DNA of 64,000 nt. Origin: a virus. Lineage: Duplodnaviria > Caudoviricetes. Shown piece by piece: positions 2,273-49,737 of the stretch; positions within the stretch are counted from its first letter, which is position 1, and every line of letters starts with the position of its first letter. The notes under the pieces were generated by a model. It was not told where the DNA came from, searched no databases, and worked only from the letters and a program-made list of their open reading frames with translations. Made by a program: the position numbers and the translations under genes. The stretch spans positions 54,082-118,081 of the IMG/VR virus record IMGVR_UViG_3300017700_000721, one strand, 5' to 3'.

Positions 2273-4516
2273 TCAGGCTGCCAGCAGCATCTTGTCATAC
2301 TCGCCCGCTGCGAGCTTGGCCAGGTCAATCTCCTTTTGGAGGCCCCAGACATCGCCCACCTTCGGGGCGACAGTGAGTTGAACCTGCCAGGTCTTGACCT
2401 CGAACTCCATGGCCTTCTTGATGATCGGAGCTACTTCCTGAACCAGCTCGTTCCGCACGAGGAACGCAAGCTCGTCATGGATCTGCATGGCGAAGGCCAC
2501 GTCACGCCATTTGTAGCCGTGAAGCTTGAGAGCCTTGTCCACCTTCACCATCGCAATGCGCGTCACCTCAGCGGCGGTTCCCTGAATAGCGGTGTTCACC
2601 GCGGACCGATTGGCGAAAGCATGGATCTTCGGGTCGGGGTTATCATAGAACGACTTCAGGCTCCGCTTCCGACCGAAGAATGTGGTTGTGTAGCCGTTCT
2701 TCCTGGCAAAAACATGGACCTTACCCATCCATCCGAATAGAACAGGGTGACCACGGACAAACCCGTCGTAGACCTGCTCGGCCGCGGCTCTGGGAATGTC
2801 AGCCTTAATAGCCAGAGTGTAGGCCGTTGCCCCGTAGAATGTTGCAAAGTTGAGCACCTTGCCCACGTCGCGCTTTCTCTTCTTCTCTTCCTTCGACAAG
2901 GCGTGGAATGTGTCAATCGGAATGCCATAAGCAGCGGCTGCCGTGAGAGAGTGGAGGTCATCTCCCTTGGCCAGAGCTCTGAGCCACCTAGGCTCGCCCG
3001 ACATATTGGCACCAATGACCAATTCCTGGCGGTCGTAGTCGAAGGAGAGTAGTTTGTAGCCCTTCGGAGCACGGAAGGCTTGGCGCACTGATGGGATCAT
3101 CAGCACGCCCTTCTGTACTCGTCGCGTGGTGTCAATGTTGACTGACTCACACTGAGCTGGGCAGCCTACACACGTCTCGCGGATGCAAACAATAGGCTCG
3201 CGGCCTTCTTCGTCCTCATCACCCTCTCTAGGGATGACATAAGGAAGGCTACGAACAACAGTCTGCCAATCAGCAGGAGCTTGAGGCGCTTCGCCAGGCT
3301 CTAGCCCTGCTCTCAGATCGATGAGGATGTCCGAGTCGTCAACCTGCGATATGTAATCGGCAGAGTCAGGCGTACCCTTCAAATCTACGGCCATCACTTC
3401 GCGAGCTTCGCCGTTAGAGACGGCCTGAATGTTCACTCCTGTGGCGCCGTCGACGTCCGGATCACCGCCTGGGGCAGAGAACCTGAAAGTCGGAGCTGCA
3501 AAGGTGTTGAAGTTGAACCTAGGTTTGATCTCTCGATCGGAGAGTGCCTGTAGCTTATTGAAGTAGGAACTACGGGCCTTCACAATCTTCTTGTAAGCGA
3601 TGATCGTCTCTACGATCGGATTGGCTCGGGCGAGCTTCTCCAGCGCCTCTTCCTTGGTAACGTGGATTGGGTTCTTGCCCTTGGTCTTGCCTGGCGAAGG
3701 CAAGCCGCCCCGCTCGAACAGAGCGTCGCCGAGCTGCTTAGGGCTGTTGATCTCGAAGGTGTAGCCGATCACCCGGAATATCTGCTCCCGCATGGTAGCA
3801 GCCCGGGTCTCAAGCATCGCCATCTGATTATCGATGTACTCCCGGTTGAGTTCCATCCCGCCGTTGTGTTCCATCCGGCGGACAATGTCGATGAGCAGGG
3901 TGTCAATCTGCACAGCCATCGGGTTCTCAGTCGCAACGTAGGCGTAGTGATCCCACATCTGCATGCCTACGTCGGCGTCAGCACAGGCGTAGTCGGTGCA
4001 TCGCTCCGGTGATTTGGTGGTAATATCCAGGCGACCTGCTTTGATCTCCTCGGGGGTGAAGAGGTCCTCGAACTTGGTCATGTCGATGCCCAAGTCTTCA
4101 TGGGCCACCGTCTTCAGACCAATCTTCTTCCGATCAGGGTCAGCTAGGTAGACAAGCTCAAGCGCATCGTTGAACTTGAAGTCAGGTTTCCACTTCAACC
4201 CCTTCTTGACCACCTGCACCTGCAGGATGTTCAAGTCATACTTGGCGTTGTAGAAGATGGGGGTGTGAGACTCCATCTTCTCTTCCATGAGCTCCCAGAC
4301 AGGCTCAAACGGTAGGTTCGCCTCGGGGTTCACTCGATGGTTAAATGGGACATAAAGGGCTGAGCCCTTCGCAAGAGACACTGACATTCCGGCAATGCCT
4401 GCGCGGCGAGTGTCAAGACTCTTTGCCTCAGTATCCATCCCCATCTGGTTCTTGGGGTGGACTGTGGACAGATATTGCTTCACGTGGTCGAGTGACCTAG
4501 CTAACTCGTACGCCAT
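2273..4516 (-). CDS. polA: Replicative family A DNA polymerase with 3'-5' exonuclease
   Basis: ExoI DTE, ExoII NAKYD, ExoIII YACAD; motif A DYDRQE, motif B RDVGKVLNFATFYG, RSAVNTAIQGTAA, motif C QIHDE. Confidence 0.95.
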   Translation of the reverse strand: MAYELARSLDHVKQYLSTVHPKNQMGMDTEAKSLDTRRAGIAGMSVSLAKGSALYVPFNHRVNPEANLPFEPVWELMEEKMESHTPIFYNAKYDLNILQVQVVKKGLKWKPDFKFNDALELVYLADPDRKKIGLKTVAHEDLGIDMTKFEDLFTPEEIKAGRLDITTKSPERCTDYACADADVGMQMWDHYAYVATENPMAVQIDTLLIDIVRRMEHNGGMELNREYIDNQMAMLETRAATMREQIFRVIGYTFEINSPKQLGDALFERGGLPSPGKTKGKNPIHVTKEEALEKLARANPIVETIIAYKKIVKARSSYFNKLQALSDREIKPRFNFNTFAAPTFRFSAPGGDPDVDGATGVNIQAVSNGEAREVMAVDLKGTPDSADYISQVDDSDILIDLRAGLEPGEAPQAPADWQTVVRSLPYVIPREGDEDEEGREPIVCIRETCVGCPAQCESVNIDTTRRVQKGVLMIPSVRQAFRAPKGYKLLSFDYDRQELVIGANMSGEPRWLRALAKGDDLHSLTAAAAYGIPIDTFHALSKEEKKRKRDVGKVLNFATFYGATAYTLAIKADIPRAAAEQVYDGFVRGHPVLFGWMGKVHVFARKNGYTTTFFGRKRSLKSFYDNPDPKIHAFANRSAVNTAIQGTAAEVTRIAMVKVDKALKLHGYKWRDVAFAMQIHDELAFLVRNELVQEVAPIIKKAMEFEVKTWQVQLTVAPKVGDVWGLQKEIDLAKLAAGEYDKMLLAA

Positions 4517-5372: not shown

Positions 5373-5874
5373 TCTTCGCCTCTCTAACTCTATTATAACA
5401 TATTTCGAGTGCTTTGTCAAGCTTTGATTTATCAGCCTGGCCGCGTTCGTAGGCCAGGAGCACCCGGTCAAAAGTCTCAGCTAGAGTGGCGTGCTCTCTC
5501 CTTGGGAGGTGGCGGGCTGTCTTTAGTACAGCCTCCACCTGGTTGCGCAACTTGGCGACTGTGTGGCGATCTGTTCGGTCATGCTCCTCCCCGAGGTCCA
5601 CACCAAAGATCTTCTCCAGATCCTTGAGTGAGTCCCTCCAAGGGACTCCATCGTTTACGTTCTTCACCTTCGCGTAGAACAGGTGAGGCGGTAGGGTGTA
5701 ATCACACGAGAAGCAGTGCGCTAGGCTTGTCGTATGGTAAAAACCCGCAGAGGGGTCTCGGTCATCGTGAATTGGGCAGCAGAATGCAAACCGACCTGAC
5801 TTCTCCAGGTAACTGATGCCCAGCAGCTTCAGTATCTGCTCAGGACTTATGAGCGGTTTCTGTTCGTGGTCCAC
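5224..5874 (-). CDS. CHC2 zinc-finger (primase Zn-binding domain) protein
   Basis: CCPIHDDRDPS...HCFSC; no TOPRIM domain visible. Confidence 0.75.
   Translation of the reverse strand: MDHEQKPLISPEQILKLLGISYLEKSGRFAFCCPIHDDRDPSAGFYHTTSLAHCFSCDYTLPPHLFYAKVKNVNDGVPWRDSLKDLEKIFGVDLGEEHDRTDRHTVAKLRNQVEAVLKTARHLPRREHATLAETFDRVLLAYERGQADKSKLDKALEICYNRVREAKNAFIDGQRIPETGPDAGIKEGAGNLPGSGPQANRRALAFEEPDESVDLD
5392..5420 (-). promoter_or_regulatory. sigma70-type promoter inside the primase Zn-finger gene
   Basis: TTGACA-17-TATAAT, positioned to drive the nuclease, polA and nfo genes. Confidence 0.85.
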
Positions 5875-28987: not shown

Positions 28988-29971
28988 TTAACATGGCGAG
29001 TCTGGACCGTAGATCTTCCGGATGGCGGATATTATCAGGAGCTCGTGGGCCGGTATTTCCTCGCCGTGACCATGACTTTTCAGCATGTCGGCAGAGGTTG
29101 TCAGCGGCGTGATTGAGGATTGCCTCTTGAGGGACTTCTCCATCCTCTCTTCCATCGCTGAGGCCAGAGCTCTGTCAACCCGCGGTTCGTTCTGGCTCGC
29201 CATGTACAGGATACAATAGCAATGAGGGTGCACGGGCCCAATCGTGAATTGCCATGCGTAGGCCGGGACTCCCCAATTGCTGTTTCCGATCACGTCGGAA
29301 AGGCGGTACATCTTCGGTGAGCCGTCTGAGTTCGTGTGGAGGTCCAGGCAATAGTCACACGCGGCTGGCCTGGGCACCTTGTACACTAGCTCGTCTTCGT
29401 CCTTGTCTACGATTTGTCCTTGCTGGAAGTAGCTGTGAAGCTCGGTCTGCAAAAGACGGTCGATCTGGCTCGTAAAGGACTCTGTTTCGCCTGTAAGGGC
29501 GGACACTAGCTCGGTCAGCGCAGAGTTGCGGGCAACAGATCGGGCAGCAGCGTCTACAAATGTCCCTTTGACTAACACTGAACGCCAATCACGGTCAGCG
29601 TTTGCTATAGCCAGTCTGTATTTGGATTGAACAGCGTCCGTGCGGCTTTCCAGCCAACGCTCGGTGTCGTTGCGCATCTGCGCAAGATGAGCCTTCTCTC
29701 GATCGTTCAGCTGGACGTTGTTATTGTAAACCCACTGGGCGATCTGATCCTTGCTCATGGTCTTCAGGGCGTTAGGGCCCAGAAGAGAGGCTACCTTTCC
29801 CGCCATGTAACTCTGCTCGAGCACTGTCATCCGAGACGTTGAGACTGCTGACGAGATGGCGGTCGGGATTGTCTGACCAAGGCCACGGCCAATTGTGTAG
29901 GCCGAGAAGGCGCTTCCTAGCGCCCTCAAGACCGACATGATGCGACCCTCGGTTTCCCGGCCGAGCAGCAT
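28988..29971 (-). CDS. MuF/SPP1 gp7-like head morphogenesis protein
   Basis: RLLQTE, ACDYC, GPVHPHCYC. Confidence 0.75.
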   Translation of the reverse strand: MLLGRETEGRIMSVLRALGSAFSAYTIGRGLGQTIPTAISSAVSTSRMTVLEQSYMAGKVASLLGPNALKTMSKDQIAQWVYNNNVQLNDREKAHLAQMRNDTERWLESRTDAVQSKYRLAIANADRDWRSVLVKGTFVDAAARSVARNSALTELVSALTGETESFTSQIDRLLQTELHSYFQQGQIVDKDEDELVYKVPRPAACDYCLDLHTNSDGSPKMYRLSDVIGNSNWGVPAYAWQFTIGPVHPHCYCILYMASQNEPRVDRALASAMEERMEKSLKRQSSITPLTTSADMLKSHGHGEEIPAHELLIISAIRKIYGPDSPC

Positions 29972-30307: not shown

Positions 30308-30474
30308 GTGTCGGACTCCAGCTCAGGATCTTCAATAACTTCTTCCAGTCTTCCGCCCATAGCAAGATAGAGCTCTTTCGCCTTCCTCCAAAAGGCATCC
30401 GTCCACTTCGGACGTTCTAAACCCGCCTTCTTCAAGGCTAAGTTCCACAGTTGAGGGCTTCTAATCCAGCTCAC
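30304..30474 (-). CDS. small hypothetical protein (56 aa)
   Basis: Not in the ORF track. GTG start, MSWIRSPQLWNLALKKAG...KELYLAMGG..., fills the gap with 4-nt overlaps on both sides. Confidence 0.6.
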   Translation of the reverse strand: MSWIRSPQLWNLALKKAGLERPKWTDAFWRKAKELYLAMGGRLEEVIEDPELESDT

Positions 30475-30950
30475 GTCTTCTTCGTCAGCCTCACACGCTG
30501 CTCGCGAGTCACCGAGCCACGCTTCAGGATCTTGCTGAGGACCTGCTCGTATTTGTTGTCGGTGTTGGCCACGATGCCCAGGTCGATGCAGCTGATCATA
30601 ACCTCCTCGCCATCTCCTGGAGGAGAGTCAGGGGTGTCAACCTTGACCGCCCGGCAATAGACCTGCGGCGCTCGAACAACCGGCATATTGGTCACGTGCC
30701 AGATACCTTCGAACCCAGAGGCTTGGGTCTCGAAGACGGTGCCCACTCGACCCAGCCAATCGAGGTCAAGGTCGTTACCTTCGATCTTCTCGTTGTAAGC
30801 TGAGTTGTACTGCCGGACGTCGCCGAACTGCTGCTCTTCCCCACGTAGGTTCCGGGCGTAGTCATTGGGATTGATGGTGTCGGGGTCGATTGAACGATAA
30901 TCGTGCTTGTTGAACCCCATCGTAGCGGGATCCCAGTTCTTTGACATCAA
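30471..30950 (-). CDS. hypothetical protein downstream of the second PolA
   Basis: Strong RBS GGAGG; 159 aa. Confidence 0.7.
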   Translation of the reverse strand: MMSKNWDPATMGFNKHDYRSIDPDTINPNDYARNLRGEEQQFGDVRQYNSAYNEKIEGNDLDLDWLGRVGTVFETQASGFEGIWHVTNMPVVRAPQVYCRAVKVDTPDSPPGDGEEVMISCIDLGIVANTDNKYEQVLSKILKRGSVTREQRVRLTKKT

Positions 30951-31021: not shown

Positions 31022-33640
31022 TTACTTGGAAATGGCTTTCCAGTTAAGACCGGCTCTGGTGTCCACCTTGAAGGGCAGAAAACCCGGAAGCGGCTGATGG
31101 AACTTCTCCAAGCTGATCTCTCGGACCTTCTCCACGAGTTCGTTCTTCACCACAAAGATGAGCTCGTCATGCATCTGCAGACCCAGGCGAACGTCATCAA
31201 AGGAATAATCCTTCCTGAGGGTGTTGAAGATCTGTGCCTGCCTAATCTTCAGGATCTCGGCGGCGGTGCCAGCGTTGTGATGGTGCCAGGCAGTCTTCCG
31301 GAAACCGTGAAGAGCAGGACCGCGAGCCGTCTTGATCCCCGGTAGGTACCTGGTCCGGCCGAAGCGGGTTGAGACAGATCCCGTCTTGGCGGCTGCTGAG
31401 AGAATGTTCTCACGATACTGGTCAGCCAGAGAGGCACGGGCCTTGTATCCAGCAATGATCTTCGCGGCCTCTGGCATGGCGATGCCGAGACGTTTAGCCA
31501 GGATAAACTCCTGCATGAGGTACAACAAGGCGAAGTTGATCGTCTTGCCAGCCTGGCGCTTGTCTGGGTTATGAAGGTCAACGCCGGGCGCGGCAGCCAT
31601 TACCTCGTCGTACATCTGGATGTGAAAGTCTACCCCGTTGACGAAAGAGGCTGACAGCACTGGGTCACCTGACAGGCTGGCCCAGGTGACGTACTCGGCC
31701 TGGCCCAGGTCGTTAGACAGAAGGGTGTAACCCGAGGGGGCTTCGATCGTCTCCCGAATAGGGACAACCCGGTTCTGTAGGTTGGGGCTGTCCGCAGTGT
31801 ACCGACCATGAGGTTGACCGTACTGGTTCCAGTTCGTCTGGACGGAGCCGGCGTTGGCGTAAGGCTCCCATTCCTTGAGCTGAGATAGAGTCGACTGGGA
31901 TCCGCGAGCCTCCATGATCGCACCCGCGATCGGATAGCCCATCGCGTCCAGCGCCTGGAGGGTGTCGTCGTCCGTCGAGGCCTTCCCTCCCTTGCTGATG
32001 CGCTGGGTTGGGAGGTTCATCACCTCGAACAGGATGCGAACGCAGTCGCCGGGCGCGTGGGGACGGAACTCCTCTCCGGCAAGCTCGTGACAACGAGCTA
32101 CCAGCCGATCCGTCTCTTTCTGCTGAGCCTCCAGGTTCCGCTGCCAGGTCTCCTTGTTGACGACAAGGGCCGTTCGGTTCATCTCCTCCGTCATCGGCTC
32201 GAGGTTGTGCTCGATCTTCGACGAGTTCGACCCGGCTGGCAAGATGACGTCGAACTTCTCGATGCGGATTTCCTGCATGGTCTCATTATACTCTGTTTTG
32301 GACTCGGTGTCAAGTCCTAATTTACCTTCACCCGCCCTGCGGATCTGGGTCGGATCTTCCACTGTCCTGTAGGATCCGTCCTCGCGGACTACCTTCACGA
32401 TGCCGTTCTCAGTCCGCTTGACTTTCGCCGGATGCCACTGACCCTTCGAGTCACAAATCTCGACTTCAGAGTCGTCCGGGTACGCACCGGTTACAGTTCC
32501 AACTGTCAACAACGTATCCTCTCGAGGCGGGCGGCCCTTGAAAGCCTGAGCGTAGAGTTCCTCGAAGCTAGGCAGCTTGACCTTTGCTCCGTCTTCCTGT
32601 ATATACTGAATAGTAAGCTTGAGGGCCTCGCGAGCTTCGTCGCGCATCCCTTCCCAACGAGCCTCAACCATTGCAGCTAACTCAAAAGATGCCTCCGCAA
32701 TCGCTTCCATTCGTTGCCATTTCGCGTTGTCGCGAATGGCTCTGTTGGCTGCGTCCGGAGACAGGTCTGAGACCTCGACGTACATCTCGCCCCAGAGGGC
32801 TGTGCGCTCCTCGTCTTTCACCTTAGCCCTGTGACGGGCCTCAATCTCTTCAGTGCTCTTGTCTCCGGAGACAAGCGTCTGTAGGGCCTCCGGTGTGTAC
32901 TTCCGGGCCTTCTCGGCGATGGGCTCAAACCTTGAGGGGAGGGCATAAACCTGGGTTTGCAGGACCAGGCTAGCTAACGTCTCAGCTTCTTTCAGATCCT
33001 GAAAGGGCGAGGGGTCACTGTCTAGTGGGAACACCTCGTCAACCCAGAAGACCTTGCAAAGAAGGGCTGGGACTTGCATAGCCATTGCCGCGAAGCAGGT
33101 TGCATTGCCCGAAAGAGCCCAGAATGTCTGGGTCCCCTTCACCGCAATAAGTGACGGTACTCGCATTTTCCCGCTGAGGGCGTCGCTAAGCTCAGCAGCG
33201 TCAAACCCACCGTAGGTGATAGCGTGCGTAGGTACAGTCGCTTCGTCGTAATCCTGACCAATGTCACCTTTTCGCATTAGTGACGGGTCTTGGTTCAGAC
33301 GGCCGTGATCCCACGTGATCTGGGCTATCACGCCCTTCACGTACTGATCAGAGATCTGCTTCAGGTTGTTGGGAGCGTCGTGTTCTTCCCGGCGAGCGTA
33401 ATCCCTCAGAGCCTGCTCGTAAGCCCCTTCGATCCTCTCTTCGTGTAATGACTTCCTCATGAGGGACCCTTCGATGGCTCCCTCGTCCGGATCTGGAGGA
33501 GCTTCGTGGATGTCCCTCTTGATCAACTCCAGAACCATCGCCACCGTAGCTTTAAGGTCAAGCCTGGCTTGCTTTTCGAGCTCGTCTAGCGACTTGTAAG
33601 GAAGCTTACGACGCTTCACCTTTAGCTTGTTGCGGGCCAA
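31022..33640 (-). CDS. second family A DNA polymerase, exonuclease-less, fused to a 454-aa N-terminal region
   Basis: GRYTADSPNLQN, motif A DLGQAE, motif B RQAGKTINFALLY, TRFGRTR, motif C QMHDE; TTG start with AGGAG RBS. Confidence 0.9.
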   Translation of the reverse strand: MARNKLKVKRRKLPYKSLDELEKQARLDLKATVAMVLELIKRDIHEAPPDPDEGAIEGSLMRKSLHEERIEGAYEQALRDYARREEHDAPNNLKQISDQYVKGVIAQITWDHGRLNQDPSLMRKGDIGQDYDEATVPTHAITYGGFDAAELSDALSGKMRVPSLIAVKGTQTFWALSGNATCFAAMAMQVPALLCKVFWVDEVFPLDSDPSPFQDLKEAETLASLVLQTQVYALPSRFEPIAEKARKYTPEALQTLVSGDKSTEEIEARHRAKVKDEERTALWGEMYVEVSDLSPDAANRAIRDNAKWQRMEAIAEASFELAAMVEARWEGMRDEAREALKLTIQYIQEDGAKVKLPSFEELYAQAFKGRPPREDTLLTVGTVTGAYPDDSEVEICDSKGQWHPAKVKRTENGIVKVVREDGSYRTVEDPTQIRRAGEGKLGLDTESKTEYNETMQEIRIEKFDVILPAGSNSSKIEHNLEPMTEEMNRTALVVNKETWQRNLEAQQKETDRLVARCHELAGEEFRPHAPGDCVRILFEVMNLPTQRISKGGKASTDDDTLQALDAMGYPIAGAIMEARGSQSTLSQLKEWEPYANAGSVQTNWNQYGQPHGRYTADSPNLQNRVVPIRETIEAPSGYTLLSNDLGQAEYVTWASLSGDPVLSASFVNGVDFHIQMYDEVMAAAPGVDLHNPDKRQAGKTINFALLYLMQEFILAKRLGIAMPEAAKIIAGYKARASLADQYRENILSAAAKTGSVSTRFGRTRYLPGIKTARGPALHGFRKTAWHHHNAGTAAEILKIRQAQIFNTLRKDYSFDDVRLGLQMHDELIFVVKNELVEKVREISLEKFHQPLPGFLPFKVDTRAGLNWKAISK
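32285..32313 (-). promoter_or_regulatory. internal sigma70-type promoter within the second PolA gene
   Basis: Exact TTGACA-ccgagtccaaaacagag-TATAAT, then 6 nt to an in-frame ATG at 32278 (Met455). Confidence 0.8.
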
Positions 33641-33652
33641 GTGCTTCTCCTG

Positions 33653-35131
33653 TTAGGAGTCCAGCTCCTGGGTGATGTCTACGTCGCGACCGTCTGGATC
33701 GTCGGTGGCCTCGGTCGGCTCTTCAAGGTTCTGGTCCTGCTTCGCCTGGAGCTCTTCCGCTTCCATCTTGTCCAACCTAGCAGTATACAACGGATCAAGG
33801 ATGATGTCTCCCGCCTTCAGCGGCGGCTCGTTGCGGTCTGCGCGAATGTCATTCACTGTCCGGAACGATTTGACCTCGGAGTTGATGATCTCCGAGTCAA
33901 TCTTCCGATCCTCGTCAAGACCCAGGAATTCCAGACGATATCGAGGATCGATCTTCTGGATCAGATTGGTGTTGAGGTTGTTCGCCAGAAATGTCAGCAA
34001 CGGGCGTAGGCCACGCTGCTTTGAGACGGCCTGCTTCTGAGGCCCTGAGCTGTCGAAGGTGACGGCTGCGCCAGACTGGCCAATCTGCCAGTTGATCTCC
34101 GTAGGGTCAATCTGATAAACCCCGCAGGCCTGTTTGACCAGGAAATCAAACATCATGGAGTATTCCATGTCACGGTTTGAGCGGTCAAGCTCCTTCCAAT
34201 CAACCTCACCATCCTTGCCAATCTTCAGCACCGGAGGGTTCCAGGCGTGAGCTGCGTTGCGGATAGCCTGCCGGAAATCACGCTTGAAGACTTGGAACTG
34301 GGTGTCATCAACGTCACCCTTCACGATCATTACACCTTTGGCAGTTCCGCCCTGGGTCAGCTGACCGGCGTTGAACTTGTCGGCGTTCAGCATTGTCGTG
34401 ATGGTTCGAACCAGGATCTCAAGTTCAGAGTACCCGTAGCCCATCATCTGGATGTTGGTCTGCGGGTTACGCACACCAAAGATCATCTCCTTGCGGGAAT
34501 ACTCTGCTACAATACGCTCGTGGAGCACCTGCACGTACCAAGGGTCATCAGACAGAGGATCCGACGCCTTCGAGAGCGATGCCTTCAGCTTACGAATGGT
34601 ACCAGCATCTACGGCCACAACGTAGGAAGGCAGACCGTTGCGGCGACTCACAATCTCGGCGTTGGCCTGGTCAAGCTCCAAACTGTCTCGCATGAACTGT
34701 CGGGTAAAGTCCTCCAGCGAGGCTTCACCGTAGCCCACGGTTCCCATCGTGTAGATCCAATCACGGAGGGCAAGGGTCTTGGCGTTGTCCTTCTTGGCGG
34801 CGTTGTCATCGCTGACGATCTCGTACCCCAGAGTGTAGCGCTGGGTCCGGGGGGTGCAGAAAGCAGCCACCTGGTTCAGCCGGGTCTGGATGATGGACCC
34901 AATGATGGGGTTCTTGGCCATCGCGCGCAGGTCGTAGGTCGACAGTGCAGACTGGGGGCGCTGCATCCACTCCGGACCCATGAACATGGTCAGCGGATCG
35001 TAGAACGTTGTCTGAGGTTCATGTGCCCGATCACGGATCTGCTCGATCGCCTTCTCGATCCGTTCCTCTACGATGGCGGCACCGAAGGAGTCCCCGATGA
35101 TCGTCCTTACGCGCTGACCTAGCGAGGGCAT
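33653..35131 (-). CDS. portal protein
   Basis: Follows TerL; IIQTRLNQVAAF, VDAGTI, RNP...GYGYSELE, QGGTAKG, CGVYQIDPTEIN. Confidence 0.9.
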   Translation of the reverse strand: MPSLGQRVRTIIGDSFGAAIVEERIEKAIEQIRDRAHEPQTTFYDPLTMFMGPEWMQRPQSALSTYDLRAMAKNPIIGSIIQTRLNQVAAFCTPRTQRYTLGYEIVSDDNAAKKDNAKTLALRDWIYTMGTVGYGEASLEDFTRQFMRDSLELDQANAEIVSRRNGLPSYVVAVDAGTIRKLKASLSKASDPLSDDPWYVQVLHERIVAEYSRKEMIFGVRNPQTNIQMMGYGYSELEILVRTITTMLNADKFNAGQLTQGGTAKGVMIVKGDVDDTQFQVFKRDFRQAIRNAAHAWNPPVLKIGKDGEVDWKELDRSNRDMEYSMMFDFLVKQACGVYQIDPTEINWQIGQSGAAVTFDSSGPQKQAVSKQRGLRPLLTFLANNLNTNLIQKIDPRYRLEFLGLDEDRKIDSEIINSEVKSFRTVNDIRADRNEPPLKAGDIILDPLYTARLDKMEAEELQAKQDQNLEEPTEATDDPDGRDVDITQELDS

Positions 35132-35168: not shown

Positions 35169-36659
35169 TTAGCCAAAGTCAGCGGAGAAGGTTGTGGCAC
35201 GCGAAGCTACGAGCGCATGCCAGATGGCCATAACCACGTCGTCGTGGGTGGTCTCGTTGCCAATCCTACCGTGTCGCTGCTGAATACCGTTGAACTCCGT
35301 AACGATGTAGTCAGTCATGATACGGTCTTGGTCGGTCTTGTACGGGAACCTGAACTGTAGGTTCTCAAACAGCGGGCGGATCGAGAGAAGACCTGTCTCC
35401 ATCGACCTCTTGTTCTGACCCGTCACGGTGTGGCCTCGAACAGGCATCCGACTCTTGTTCTTGAAGTGCTCCCGGTAAAGGCCTTGGAACATGTTGTCTT
35501 CAAGAAAGCCCAGGGTTACTTGGTACATTTGGCAGTAGTATTCAATCTGGTTGATCTGCTCCTGCATGAACTGAGGGCGGGCTCGCCAATAGTTCAGAAG
35601 TGTGTAAAGGTTCGCGCTCTTGTCGTACTCCAAAGCTACGATAGCGGTCCAGTCGCCGTCGTTAGATCCCGGTACTGAAAAGTCCACCCCCAGGAAGACA
35701 GGGTTTCCACCTGTATAGTTCCTGGAGTAGGATAGCTGGCGGTCAAACAGTGGCTCGAGAAGGCTCGTCGGGAAGATCGTGGTCTCGTCCGAGAGCGGCT
35801 TGTTCATATACTCCTTGGAGAAGGAGAGACTGCCGACCTTCCGTCGGATAGCCATCAGATCTTCTGCAGAGTAACGATCGGCCCACAGTGGAATGGTCAT
35901 CGCCTCGTCGACGAAAGCGGCGAGCTTTGCTCCCGTGTACTCACCTCCCTGGAGCTGCTCGTGATACATATCGTCGGTATCTTGGGCGGTGCCCACCGTA
36001 ACAATCTGCGACTTGAACCCTTGAAGGCGGACCTTGGCGGTGCCCTTGTCCTTCATGGGGAAGACCACTTCGTTGAAGCGAGTCTTCATCATCTTCCGCA
36101 CGTCAGCTGACCAGCTGTTCTTTTCGTTCAGCACGTCGTCCAGTAGGATCAGCTGCGGATGGCGGCCACGCAAAGGCGACATGAAACCCTTCGCCTTGAT
36201 GACCTTCTGGTTCCCCAGCTGCATCTCGGTTCGGGAGTCAGGGCCGTGCGATCGTCCTTTCGGGAGAAGGGGCCAAAGAGACTCCCGATTGTTCATCAGG
36301 ATCTTCATCTTGTCCAGGTTCTCGACGGCGGTCGGCTGGTCAGGACCAAGGATCAAGATGTCTTGTACCCAAGGATCGTACTTCGCCTTCCAGAGGGCAT
36401 AGGCTCTGATCAGCGAGTGACTCTTCCCGTGATCTCGAGGGGCCATCTCTATCACGTCATCGCCCGTCTTCAGGTGATCCCACCAGATCTTATGCTGAGG
36501 ACCAATCTCAAAGCCCAGCTCCACCTTCTGGAAGACTAGGAAGTTGGTCCTACACAGCTGCCGGACAGCGTGTTTAATCCCTGCGGCGTTACCGCCCAGG
36601 AAGGCTCCGGCTGCTTTCGACTGGCTAGTGCCGGGCCGAGGGAGGTGGTAAAAGGTCAT
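35169..36659 (-). CDS. terL: terminase large subunit
   Basis: APRDHGKS, LRGRHPQLILLDD, LGVDFS, GDWTA, HDDVVMA. Confidence 0.95.
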   Translation of the reverse strand: MTFYHLPRPGTSQSKAAGAFLGGNAAGIKHAVRQLCRTNFLVFQKVELGFEIGPQHKIWWDHLKTGDDVIEMAPRDHGKSHSLIRAYALWKAKYDPWVQDILILGPDQPTAVENLDKMKILMNNRESLWPLLPKGRSHGPDSRTEMQLGNQKVIKAKGFMSPLRGRHPQLILLDDVLNEKNSWSADVRKMMKTRFNEVVFPMKDKGTAKVRLQGFKSQIVTVGTAQDTDDMYHEQLQGGEYTGAKLAAFVDEAMTIPLWADRYSAEDLMAIRRKVGSLSFSKEYMNKPLSDETTIFPTSLLEPLFDRQLSYSRNYTGGNPVFLGVDFSVPGSNDGDWTAIVALEYDKSANLYTLLNYWRARPQFMQEQINQIEYYCQMYQVTLGFLEDNMFQGLYREHFKNKSRMPVRGHTVTGQNKRSMETGLLSIRPLFENLQFRFPYKTDQDRIMTDYIVTEFNGIQQRHGRIGNETTHDDVVMAIWHALVASRATTFSADFG

Positions 36660-37888: not shown

Positions 37889-38497
37889 TCAGTGTACGAC
37901 TCTAATGTTGAAATTGTGATCCAGCAACAGTATCAACCCCAATTGCTTGTACCATTTGTCAGGGTCTTTAGGCTCAAGATCGGCCAGCTTGTTCTTGGTC
38001 TTCGTAAATATCCACTTCACTGTTGACTGGCGGACGTCATGCTTCTTTCCCACCATCTCTTGGTTCAGCCAATAGAACAGGTCGAAGAGGATGTCCTTTT
38101 CCTTCTCTTTCAAGAAGTAGAGCTCGCCTAGGACGGCACGGAGAGGGATGTCCGCAATCGTCATCAGGTAGCGTAGCTTGATAATGGTTCGGCGGTAGCG
38201 ATACGAGACGGTTGGCTGAGAGATCCCAAGGAGGACCGCAATGTCCTTCTGGTGCTTCTTCTTCTCGTAGATCAGCCAGAAGATCTCTGCCTCTAGCTCT
38301 GGCAGGAACTTCATCAGCGGCTTGACTTCCATGTCCAGATAGAACCCAGACGGATGGGCGTCCGCGATGTCCTGAGCGTCAAGGTAATCGAGTGTCGCCG
38401 GGTCTACGGGAAAGAATATCTCCCGTTGGTAAACTGTGTCTAGGTTCTCTGATGCGACGATGCCTTGGCCCGCCGCGTGTTGCTTACGCACTACCAT
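37889..38497 (-). CDS. sigma70 region-4-like tandem HTH protein
   Basis: LPELEAEIF...QKDIAVLLGISQPTVSYRYRRTIIKLR, plus a second copy LKEKEKDIL...QEMVG..VRQSTVKW. Confidence 0.7.
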   Translation of the reverse strand: MVVRKQHAAGQGIVASENLDTVYQREIFFPVDPATLDYLDAQDIADAHPSGFYLDMEVKPLMKFLPELEAEIFWLIYEKKKHQKDIAVLLGISQPTVSYRYRRTIIKLRYLMTIADIPLRAVLGELYFLKEKEKDILFDLFYWLNQEMVGKKHDVRQSTVKWIFTKTKNKLADLEPKDPDKWYKQLGLILLLDHNFNIRVVH

Positions 38498-38975: not shown

Positions 38976-39536
38976 CTATACTTGGACGATAAGGAGAGGC
39001 TGGTCTCCGGACTGACCGTAGTTGTCCACTACCTTCTCGGTAGGGTCCGGTGTGGGCTCTGGAGGAGGTGCAAAGAGCTTCTTCTCTTTCTCGTTCTTAA
39101 CCCACGAGAGCGAGGCCAGGTCCGATATGTCTCGGACGGTCGTCTCCATGAAGGCTCCGGTTCGATAAGAGCCGTACTGGAGGTTGAAGAAGTCGGCGGC
39201 AGTCTTCAGATCCTTGAACCCGAGTAGGATCTTATGCTCGTCGAAGGTGCCGTCGTCCTTGAGGAGTTCTACCTGGAAGACGCACTCGCTTTCGCGATCA
39301 TCTCCAACGTAGCAATCCATCTCGTCGCCCTCTTCCGGGGAGACTGTGTCCTTGATGAACCCGTAGTCGGCATAAAGCATCCAGCCGTCGTAAGGGTCGC
39401 CATCAGGCTTGGTCTTGATCTCGCCTTTCTTGTACTCGATGACGAGCCCAAGGCCCTGAAAGTCCAAGTCAAAAGGCTTCGACTTGGCTTTGCGGTCCTC
39501 AATGGAGGAGGCCGTGGTAGGCACTATTGAGCCCAT
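38976..39536 (-). CDS. phage inorganic pyrophosphatase-like (InPase) protein
   Basis: IEYKKGE, W..YADYGFIKDT, EGDEMDCYVG, FDEHKILLGF. Start moved to ATG 39536 behind an RBS. Confidence 0.8.
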   Translation of the reverse strand: MGSIVPTTASSIEDRKAKSKPFDLDFQGLGLVIEYKKGEIKTKPDGDPYDGWMLYADYGFIKDTVSPEEGDEMDCYVGDDRESECVFQVELLKDDGTFDEHKILLGFKDLKTAADFFNLQYGSYRTGAFMETTVRDISDLASLSWVKNEKEKKLFAPPPEPTPDPTEKVVDNYGQSGDQPLLIVQV

Positions 39537-39558
39537 CAGGGCCTCCTCTTGAGAGGTT

Positions 39559-39990
39559 TTAGCCGATCGGCTCGATCTCGATCCAAACGATGCCGGCACC
39601 TGCCGTAGCGAAGGCGGCGCCCGGGATGATCTCGATCTTGTCGCCGATCTCAACGCGGGCCGTCAGCGTGCCGACGGTCGGCGTGTCCGTGAGCGGGACG
39701 TTGACCGGGGCAGCATCCGGCACCACGATGGCAAGACCGGCGACTGCAACGTCGTTCACCTCGAACGTGATGCTGGCGCCGGTGGTGACAGCGGTGTACG
39801 GTGTGAAGCCGGCGCGAACGATCTTGCCCTTGGTGGGCGAGATCACGTAGTGAACCGTCGGTGCCAGGAGATCGGTCTGATTGTAGTCGTTCTGGATGAT
39901 GCGGTTCTGGATGATCTCCAGAGCGCGGCGTGTGCCACCGGCATCAGCATACGGCTTCGAGATATCCTTCTGGATCATAGAAAGGTCCAT
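39559..39990 (-). CDS. putative virion/decoration protein
   Basis: High GC3 like the capsid gene; beta-rich C-terminal domain. Confidence 0.5.
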   Translation of the reverse strand: MDLSMIQKDISKPYADAGGTRRALEIIQNRIIQNDYNQTDLLAPTVHYVISPTKGKIVRAGFTPYTAVTTGASITFEVNDVAVAGLAIVVPDAAPVNVPLTDTPTVGTLTARVEIGDKIEIIPGAAFATAGAGIVWIEIEPIG

Positions 39991-41102: not shown

Positions 41103-41132
41103 CAAAAGAAGCCCGGATGAGCCGGGCTTCTT
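41103..41132 (-). terminator. intrinsic terminator
   Basis: AAGAAGCCCGG-ctcat-CCGGGCTTCTTTT. Confidence 0.85.
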
Positions 41133-41610: not shown

Positions 41611-41639
41611 ATTATAGCACGTCTCAAGGGAACAGTCAA
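41611..41639 (-). promoter_or_regulatory. sigma70-type promoter
   Basis: TTGACT-17-TATAAT with extended TG. Confidence 0.8.
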
Positions 41640-41679
41640 CTATCTAATTCGTCCTGGCTATGCGTTGGAGGAATATCCT

Positions 41680-41991
41680 CTATGCACCGGGTGCAGTCAA
41701 CGAAGGCTCACGTTGCTTGACAAGGAGCAGGTCGAGCTCATAATCAAGGGCGAGGGCCATTGCCTCGACCTCGTTGATCTTCGGTATCGAGAAGCCCAGG
41801 TTCCAGTACTTCAGTGTCCCTGTAGGAATCTTCAGGCCGGCCTTCTCCTCGATCAGCTTGGAGAAAGGTTCCCAGCCAGGGCTGTGCAGGCCCCGCTCCG
41901 TGGCGTCGCCGAACAGATCTCGAACCATCCAATGCAAAGGGACCCGAGGCCGGGGTGACCTGGGTCCCTTCTTCAGTGTTTTGCGCTTCAT
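41680..41991 (-). CDS. XRE/Cro-like HTH protein
   Basis: IPTGTLKYWNLGFSIPKINEVEAMALAL. Confidence 0.65.
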   Translation of the reverse strand: MKRKTLKKGPRSPRPRVPLHWMVRDLFGDATERGLHSPGWEPFSKLIEEKAGLKIPTGTLKYWNLGFSIPKINEVEAMALALDYELDLLLVKQREPSLTAPGA

Positions 41992-43003: not shown

Positions 43004-43044
43004 CTCAGTCTCCAGTTGGTTCAGAGCGGATTGCTCATGGACTT

Positions 43045-43073
43045 ATTATAGCTTGTTTTCTCGGCGGTGTCAA
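43045..43073 (-). promoter_or_regulatory. sigma70-type promoter
   Basis: TTGACA-17-TATAAT. Confidence 0.85.
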
Positions 43074-43157
43074 CGACTTAATTCATGCAGGTTGGGAATA
43101 GCTCTTATGCCCCCGGTGCAGATGTCGCCTAGCGACCTTCGCTTCTGAATATACTGG

Positions 43158-46104: not shown

Positions 46105-46133
46105 ATTATAACATACCCAAGACAGAGTGTCAA
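46105..46133 (-). promoter_or_regulatory. sigma70-type promoter (probably leaderless transcript)
   Basis: TTGACA-17-TATAAT, 5 nt from the ATG. Confidence 0.85.
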
Positions 46134-46138
46134 CTACC

Positions 46139-46321
46139 CTAGTTATGCTCCTTCGGAATAGCTGCCTTGCGCTTGGCGAGTTCAGCCTGGATCCTTGTGT
46201 GGGTTGTGACCTGAGCCTTCCCTAGTCCTTTGGTCTGAGCCTTGACAGCCAGTTCCTGGTCCTTGATCCGTAGCTCGTCGTAGGATCGCTCGTGGAGGTG
46301 TTTGGTGCACCACCTACTCAT
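46139..46321 (-). CDS. hypothetical protein
   Basis: Packed ORF. Confidence 0.5.
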   Translation of the reverse strand: MSRWCTKHLHERSYDELRIKDQELAVKAQTKGLGKAQVTTHTRIQAELAKRKAAIPKEHN

Positions 46322-49699: not shown

Positions 49700-49737
49700 C
49701 TGTTTAGTTATACAGCCTAGGAATACCACCTATGCAC

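Follow-up and report, generated by a model that had tools for sequence, protein, structure and literature searches.

The window analyzed here is a stretch of 64,000 nucleotides (nt) that forms the last 64 kb of a 118,081-bp IMG/VR virus record (IMGVR_UViG_3300017700_000721; Caudoviricetes). Directly after the terminase and portal genes, its minus strand carries an open reading frame (ORF) of 872 codons with a TTG start (31022-33640), which encodes a fusion of an N-terminal domain (residues 1-454) to a family A DNA polymerase core (residues 455-872). We found that the codons joining the two parts hold a perfect consensus promoter (32313-32285), that this promoter is retained in most members of a divergent gene family, and that five related loci carry the polymerase as a separate gene directly behind such a promoter. 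The comparative data support well the view that one gene gives two products, a fusion protein and a polymerase-only protein; because the promoter is kept at the DNA level across the family, the gene very probably makes both the long and the short form. The best explanation for the short form, and in our judgment a likely one, is a leaderless transcript whose first codon is Met455.

A perfect promoter lies in the linker of the fusion gene

The initial annotation, made from the sequence of the window alone, had described a TTGACA-17-TATAAT element at 32313-32285 followed 6 nt later by an in-frame ATG with no Shine-Dalgarno (SD) sequence, and direct reading of the minus strand confirmed both. The order is TTGACA (32313-32308), a 17-nt spacer (32307-32291), TATAAT (32290-32285), the discriminator GAGACC (32284-32279) and the ATG of Met455 (32278-32276), and the 29-bp element matches the TTGACA/TATAAT consensus at 12 of 12 positions with a 17-bp spacer. 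The -35 hexamer is coded as cTT GAC Acc (Leu-Asp-Thr) and the -10 hexamer as TAT AAT (Tyr-Asn), AAT representing just 7% of the Asn codons of this gene. Transcription usually starts at the seventh base after the -10 hexamer, which here is the A of the Met455 ATG (32278), the predicted +1. Only GAGACC separates the -10 hexamer from the ATG, no GGAG-like SD sequence precedes it, and a start at this codon leaves a reading frame of 418 codons (31022-32278). For the full-length form, an AGGAG SD sequence (33647-33651) stands 6 nt before the TTG start codon (33640-33638).

Eight perfect sites of this type are present in the window, all on the minus strand, versus 0.00 expected from a dinucleotide-preserving shuffle; the whole genome has 17, which likewise share the minus strand and a spacer of 17 nt. 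The site in the fusion gene is the sole one deep inside a long ORF (446 codons are open upstream and 430 downstream), the other 16 being intergenic or overlapping merely the last codons of a gene. No other consensus promoter occurs in the 36-kb structural region of the genome or between a terminator at 41103-41130 and the promoter at 5420. We consider it very likely that the element is a real promoter. It had been described as sharing the consensus of the early promoters of the phage. This holds for the hexamers and the 17-nt spacer but not for the TGn extended -10, which is missing here and present at 15 of the 16 other perfect promoters, nor for an upstream GCATA..TATTCC..GCATA motif common to four other promoters; "early", moreover, is a presumption that derives from the non-structural genes behind these promoters.

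The placement of the element at a domain boundary was upheld by profile, alignment and model. The Pfam family DNA_pol_A covers residues 502-868 (200.7 bits versus a cut-off of 34.3), and the short form aligns, from its residue 21 onward, to residues 205-602 of the Klenow chain, which are its polymerase domain (expectation value (E) 1.7e-39), in agreement with the earlier description of the 418-residue product as a thumb-palm-fingers core. In an AlphaFold model of the N-terminal domain, the predicted local distance difference test (pLDDT) score falls below 50 at residues 442-448, exactly at the position of the promoter. The promoter and Met455 lie 8 residues before a conserved block, F.V.IPAGSNS.KIE, that opens the polymerase core. 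From the model and this block it follows that the promoter sits in the interdomain linker (residues 436-454, 32279-32335), which is predicted to be disordered.

The promoter is conserved in distant relatives at the DNA level

A HMMER scan with the N-terminal domain identified 36 proteins, many of them 800-917 residues long with the same architecture of N-terminal domain and PolA. For DNA comparison we used 19 fused genes including that of the window, one partial gene (L011) and five split forms. Synteny of terminase, portal and fusion gene was seen in all 17 loci with enough flanking sequence, the family order being terminase, portal, fusion, small genes and a gene of about 330 residues. No cultured phage with the terminase-portal-fusion synteny was found. 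The Microcystis phage Me-ZS1 was considered as a cultured relative and rejected, as its PolA gene lies in the replication module beside a clamp gene and not after the portal gene.

Conservation of the promoter, which the initial annotation had proposed as a check, was evident: 17 of the 19 fused homologues (36-43% protein identity) have a site with at least 11 of 12 matches at or just upstream of the junction. The match is 12 of 12 in 13 genes (among them that of the window, L005-L010, L012, L038, L044, L046 and L047) and also in the partial gene. Four genes have 11 matches: L039 (TATATT), L045 (TTGACG, with a TGG extension), and L041 and L042, in which the site lies 20-45 codons upstream. No consensus site was observed at the junction in L040, L043 and L048, of which L040 is a low-GC (guanine-cytosine) relative (42% GC). 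The family loci, 220 kb in total, contain 23 perfect sites, of which 18 are the junction promoter.

Several features of this conservation point to the DNA rather than the protein. Clades are separated by path lengths of about one change per site, so that synonymous sites are saturated. In the comparison of the window with its closest relative, L005 (73% protein identity), all 12 hexamer bases and the ATG are shared; in the spacer 10 of 17 positions agree and in the discriminator 2 of 6, and most of the residues neighbouring the promoter differ. The hexamers are moreover read in different registers. The -35 hexamer is cTT GAC A (Leu-Asp) in most genes and TTG ACA (Leu-Thr) in L012 and L038, while the -10 hexamer is TAT AAT (Tyr-Asn) in most genes and ggT ATA ATa (Gly-Ile-Ile) in L006 and L038. 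Given Asp, Tyr and Asn, the joint probability of the codons GAC, TAT and AAT, calculated from each gene's own codon usage, is 0.005-0.12 per lineage. Since the hexamers are kept across three codon registers and in rare codons, selection acts on the DNA signal. In L045 (4382-4416), where the -35 hexamer is imperfect (TTGACG), a TGG (Trp) codon before TAT AAT creates a TGn extended -10 and so seems to compensate through a change in the protein.

Related loci encode the polymerase core as a separate gene

The initial annotation had asked whether homologues exist as stand-alone ORFs of about 420 residues, and they do. Five loci (L013, L018, L019, L020 and L022) keep the whole module, comprising the genes for the large terminase subunit (TerL), portal, polymerase, g159, g111, MuF-like protein, g267, g214 and g456, with the polymerase as a separate gene of 418-422 residues that lies directly behind a perfect promoter in all five. 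A short homologue of the N-terminal domain (170-200 residues) precedes it in L013, L019 and L020. The split polymerase genes begin 8-10 residues before the F.V.IP.G block, at a position homologous to Met455. These genes show the short product to be a natural unit and the pairing of promoter and polymerase to be independent of the fusion.

How these genes start differs from locus to locus. In L013 the ATG lies 5 nt after the -10 hexamer, there is no SD sequence and the TAA within TATAAT closes the upstream frame, so that leaderless initiation is the only evident route; as read from its sequence, this stand-alone polymerase is unambiguously leaderless, which speaks indirectly for translation of a 5'-terminal start codon. 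L018, L019 and L020 have leaders of 15-19 nt with GGAG-type SD sequences. L022 was considered as a further leaderless gene and downgraded, as an SD-led (AAGGGA) in-frame ATG nine codons past its 5'-terminal ATG aligns with the family start.

The arrangement of a split N-terminal gene followed by a promoter and polymerase gene is compatible with an alternative raised in the initial annotation, that a promoter and polymerase had inserted in frame as a "moron" into a head protein gene. A head protein as the host gene was not borne out (see below), and the direction of the event is not given by the tree of the polymerase core, in which the split forms fall inside the family and the deep branches do not tell fusion from fission.

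The start codon and the case for leaderless translation

Of the 19 fused genes, 9 have an in-frame ATG and 4 an in-frame GTG 6-7 nt past the -10 hexamer, 13 in all. The partial gene also has a GTG, and in L012 an in-frame GTG-ATG pair lies 10-13 nt past the -10 hexamer. The junction codon at +1 is always an in-frame ATG or GTG and never ATC, a codon that does occur at other promoters.

Several observations nevertheless weigh against a leaderless start at this codon. Met455 is kept also where the promoter is displaced (L041 and L042) or absent (L040); since it is conserved there without a junction promoter, the Met alone is no proof. An ATG lies 5-6 nt after the -10 hexamer at 5 of 20 consensus-type promoters genome-wide (about 0.6 expected) and several others have ATC, which suggests that CAT(C/G)A is preferred as a start site or that 5'-terminal AUGs are frequent. 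Part of the signal of an ATG at +1 may thus be due to such a preference. Elsewhere in this phage the genes use SD sequences, and none makes a convincing leaderless case. Leaderless mRNAs that begin with GTG are poorly translated in Escherichia coli, and no prophage copy was found among 185,579 species genomes.

The most serious competing account is that the promoter was selected mainly to boost the downstream head genes (g159, g111, the MuF-like gene and a probable capsid gene), with the polymerase frame yielding little or no protein. We found no terminator after the polymerase gene (folding z-score -0.5) or between its stop codon and the next gene, and the gaps in relatives are 2-40 nt. The internal promoter therefore probably also drives the downstream head genes, and the first of them, a 159-residue gene kept in relatives (30471-30950), probably shares a transcript with the polymerase gene. 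L040 argues in the same direction, as it has no internal promoter and a perfect TTGACA-17-TATAAT (L040:5642-5670) 5 nt after the stop codon of its fusion gene, before the next head gene; further consensus promoters lie within the head module of L005, L045 and L047. In this phage group, consensus promoters also occur outside the early genes. Yet the promoter is found before and not after the polymerase core in 17 of 19 fused and 5 of 5 split forms, the +1 codon is kept as a start codon, and the split polymerase, with its own SD sequence or a 5'-terminal ATG right after the promoter, is the first translated cistron there. On this balance we regard a head-gene role as unlikely to be the main reason for the promoter, although it and a polymerase isoform are not mutually exclusive.

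The remaining accounts fare worse against the same data. A short form, to which the promoter would be unrelated, could arise if ribosomes initiate internally on the long mRNA (the situation of T7 gene 4A/4B) or if the linker is cleaved by a protease. This would accommodate the conservation of Met455 where the promoter is displaced or absent, and AAGG or GAGGAG does occur just before the start codon in several relatives; but these SD-like bases are not conserved in the family, lie too near the start codon (0-4 nt) and leave the conservation of the hexamers in three codon registers unexplained, making this route improbable. The element might instead act on DNA, as a transcription-activated replication origin or as a binding site for RNA polymerase related to packaging. 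Promoter-primed origins are known in T7 and T4, and its being the only consensus promoter in the structural region would fit, but in fused and split genes alike the element stays with the 5' end of the polymerase core, together with a start codon or an SD leader, and neither origin-like repeats nor an AT-rich unwinding stretch was noted beside it on reading the sequence. We consider such a role very improbable. A chance match without function, finally, has next to no claim to belief: it is refuted by the comparative data, with 0.00 sites expected and the element present in 17 of 19 distant homologues.

Proposed origin of the two forms

For the leaderless isoform, which we thus prefer, the following scheme would apply. 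The 29-bp element would be a functional sigma-70-type promoter, maintained by selection in the disordered-linker codons of a fusion of ParB/sulfiredoxin (Srx), Tudor and PolA parts. Host RNA polymerase would initiate on the A of the Met455 ATG or no more than a base away, giving an mRNA without a leader whose 5'-terminal AUG is read to produce the 418-residue polymerase core (thumb, palm and fingers, with no exonuclease domain). Transcripts from upstream of the gene would be translated from the SD-led TTG at 33640 into the 872-residue fusion, so that one gene would yield a tethered and a free polymerase. The internal transcript most likely continues into the downstream head genes. The exact +1, the leaderless translation, and the timing and roles of both forms are what we infer from the DNA, and the proposal of the initial annotation that the short form is made early and the long form late for packaging is a conjecture.

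The polymerase core is catalytically intact and the N-terminal half resembles ParB/Srx and Tudor folds

In all of 17 sequences the residues D644, E649, R695, K699, Y707, D825 and E826 are unchanged; their aligned counterparts in Klenow are D705, E710, R754, K758, Y766, D882 and E883, and the catalytic motifs A (D..E), B (R..K..F..Y) and C (HDE) are intact. The Klenow minor-groove residues R841, N845 and Q849 are replaced by K782, H786 and A790 in the family motif KTAWHHHNAG. The family-invariant sequence KTAWHHHNAGTAAE (31270-31300, residues 782-795) stands in for the PolA motif that holds these three Klenow residues. Judged by its sequence, the polymerase appears catalytically intact yet has unusual DNA-contact residues. 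No 5' nuclease domain is present, and no 3'-5' exonuclease family or fold was matched in the model of the N-terminal domain. Compared with DNA polymerase I (Klenow, Taq large fragment), the phage core thus aligns to Klenow with motifs A, B and C intact, while the fusion lacks the 3'-5' exonuclease and 5' nuclease domains and has the minor-groove residues changed to K/H/A.

Residues 1-454 match no Pfam or PHROG family. The AlphaFold model of this part, built on 31 homologues (mean pLDDT 86), consists of helices (residues 16-86), an alpha/beta domain (about 98-230; 32951-33349), a long helical hairpin (236-366), a small Tudor/SH3-like beta-barrel (about 390-435; 32336-32473) and a disordered tail (436-454). 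Foldseek matched the alpha/beta part, with modest scores, to Noc/ParB (E 8e-4), to sulfiredoxin (template modeling (TM) score by target about 0.5) and to phage ParB/Srx proteins, and the nearest Atlas clusters are ParB_N; the beta-barrel was matched to Tudor domains (TM by target about 0.8). The usual GxxR active-site arginine is not conserved, the family consensus there being G.....AA, and neither the ParB nor the DdrB-ParB model of Pfam matched any of 31 family members at E up to 0.1. A wide VIA-align search gave generic helical-hairpin and Tudor matches only.

That the N-terminal part is a head protein, as the initial annotation had supposed, was not supported. No Pfam or PHROG family matches it, its modelled fold resembles the ParB/Srx and Tudor types, and a MuF-like fold is found in a separate gene of 327 residues (28988-29971, minus strand), a putative minor head protein. 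The similarity of the latter is at the level of structure only: its nearest Atlas models are Phage_Mu_F minor capsid proteins (TM 0.5-0.6), and it has no match in Pfam or PHROG. On the model, the N-terminal part is ParB/Srx-like and Tudor-like and not a recognisable head protein.

Relation to known systems

Pairs of in-frame isoforms are known for T7 gene 4A/4B, phiX174 A/A* and lambda C/Nu3. Like them, the phage gene described here would give a long and a short protein with a shared C terminus and different roles; those short forms arise from internal SD-led starts on one mRNA and not from an internal promoter and a leaderless transcript. The lambda cI mRNA made from PRM is leaderless. Leaderless mRNAs such as this one and those of mycobacteria resemble the proposed transcript in having the start codon at the 5' end, no SD sequence and, in some hosts, acceptance of ATG or GTG. 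They differ in that they mostly comprise whole genes, whereas the phage start lies inside the coding sequence of another protein and the -35 and -10 hexamers are themselves codons. In mycobacteria, leaderless starts inside genes are frequent as well (PMC4633059).

The closest parallel is Shigella virF (Di Martino et al. 2016, PMC5101355): from a promoter inside the gene for VirF30, a leaderless mRNA is made that encodes VirF21. The phage gene is predicted to match it in having an internal promoter, an mRNA 5' end 0-2 nt from an in-frame ATG and an N-terminally truncated second protein. VirF21 was shown by primer extension, toeprinting and translation assays, whereas our case is deduced from sequence; the phage gene also differs in being a ParB/Srx-Tudor fusion to a DNA polymerase, with a perfect consensus promoter that is found family-wide in several codon registers. 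By this analogy, the phage case would be a variant of the known VirF-type mechanism in an undescribed phage gene family.

The architecture of the long form recalls the polyvalent proteins, in which ParB-like domains are joined to enzymes encoded near virion genes and which are thought to be packaged and delivered with the phage DNA (Iyer et al. 2017, PMC5512222). The fusion is, as in their definition, a multidomain protein in a late/virion gene context, and like P1 DdrB and other polyvalent proteins, it joins a putative ParB/Srx-like domain to an enzymatic one next to portal, MuF and InPase genes. It differs in that it matches no Pfam ParB or DdrB-ParB model, and the main text of PMC5512222 contains no family A DNA polymerase fusion. 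A literature search on virion-associated phage DNA polymerases and ParB-PolA fusions found nothing relevant beyond that paper.

A tentative idea, and one we think doubtful, is that the ParB/Srx-Tudor module anchors the long form, as a DNA polymerase, at the packaging machine or in the capsid, the embedded promoter supplying the free core at another time. If true, the long form would be a polyvalent-type and possibly injected polymerase, or an enzyme that fills in or duplicates the genome ends during packaging, and the family would be one of phages with a virion- or packaging-associated DNA polymerase under a codon-embedded promoter. Tethered and free forms of the enzyme would bear on whether a DNA polymerase can be carried or used by tailed phages at packaging or entry. 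The gene is also a case of overlapping codes, in which a consensus promoter appears to have been held in a protein linker over long evolution with the protein yielding to the DNA signal, the linker residues being Tyr-Asn, Gly-Ile-Ile or Trp-Tyr-Asn according to register. It defines an undescribed family: between their portal and head genes, uncultured phages of about 118 kb encode a second family A polymerase that lacks the exonuclease and has altered DNA-contact residues. Every gene caller would miss the predicted short product.

Gene neighbourhood and other promoters of the phage

The record has 123-bp direct terminal repeats, and nearly all genes are on the minus strand, including every gene for which coordinates are given here. 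Upstream of the fusion gene are the genes for the portal protein (33653-35131) and the large terminase subunit (35169-36659). The perfect promoter at 5420-5392 precedes an operon that includes the gene for the other polymerase of the phage, a complete family A enzyme of 747 residues (2273-4516). A 225-residue protein (38976-39653), encoded just upstream of the terminase genes, has a PF18823 InPase domain, which is otherwise noted in polyvalent or virion-delivered phage proteins. A 202-residue protein (37889-38497) matches Sigma70 region 4 only (E 3.9e-9). It was considered as a late sigma factor; because the match is limited to region 4, it could equally be the small terminase subunit, and it could be either that or a sigma-like factor for the promoter-less structural region.

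Among the other promoters, an 11 of 12 site at 41639 with an ATG 6 nt after its -10 hexamer opening 150 codons was tried as a second leaderless gene and rejected, given a 2-nt indel that disrupts the frame in L005 and an SD-led ATG 15 codons further downstream. A clean intrinsic terminator, GAAGCCCGG-CTCAT-CCGGGCTTC-TTTTG (41103-41130, minus strand), closes the short unit transcribed from this promoter. Behind the promoter at 46133, the 5' ATG is in frame with an SD-led start 7 codons downstream. At the promoter at 43073, a five-codon ORF (ATG AGC AAT CCG CTC and a stop, MSNPL; 43021-43038, minus strand) begins 6 nt after the -10 hexamer and is retained in L005 at about 1412-1429, which makes it a possible leaderless mini-ORF or conserved 5' leader. 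Four consensus promoters have the sequence GCATA-N5-TATTCC-N6-GCATA 9-19 nt upstream of the -35 hexamer (41659-41685, 43084-43110, 46144-46170 and 49709-49735, minus strand; 0 expected by chance), a candidate operator or activator site of one promoter subclass.

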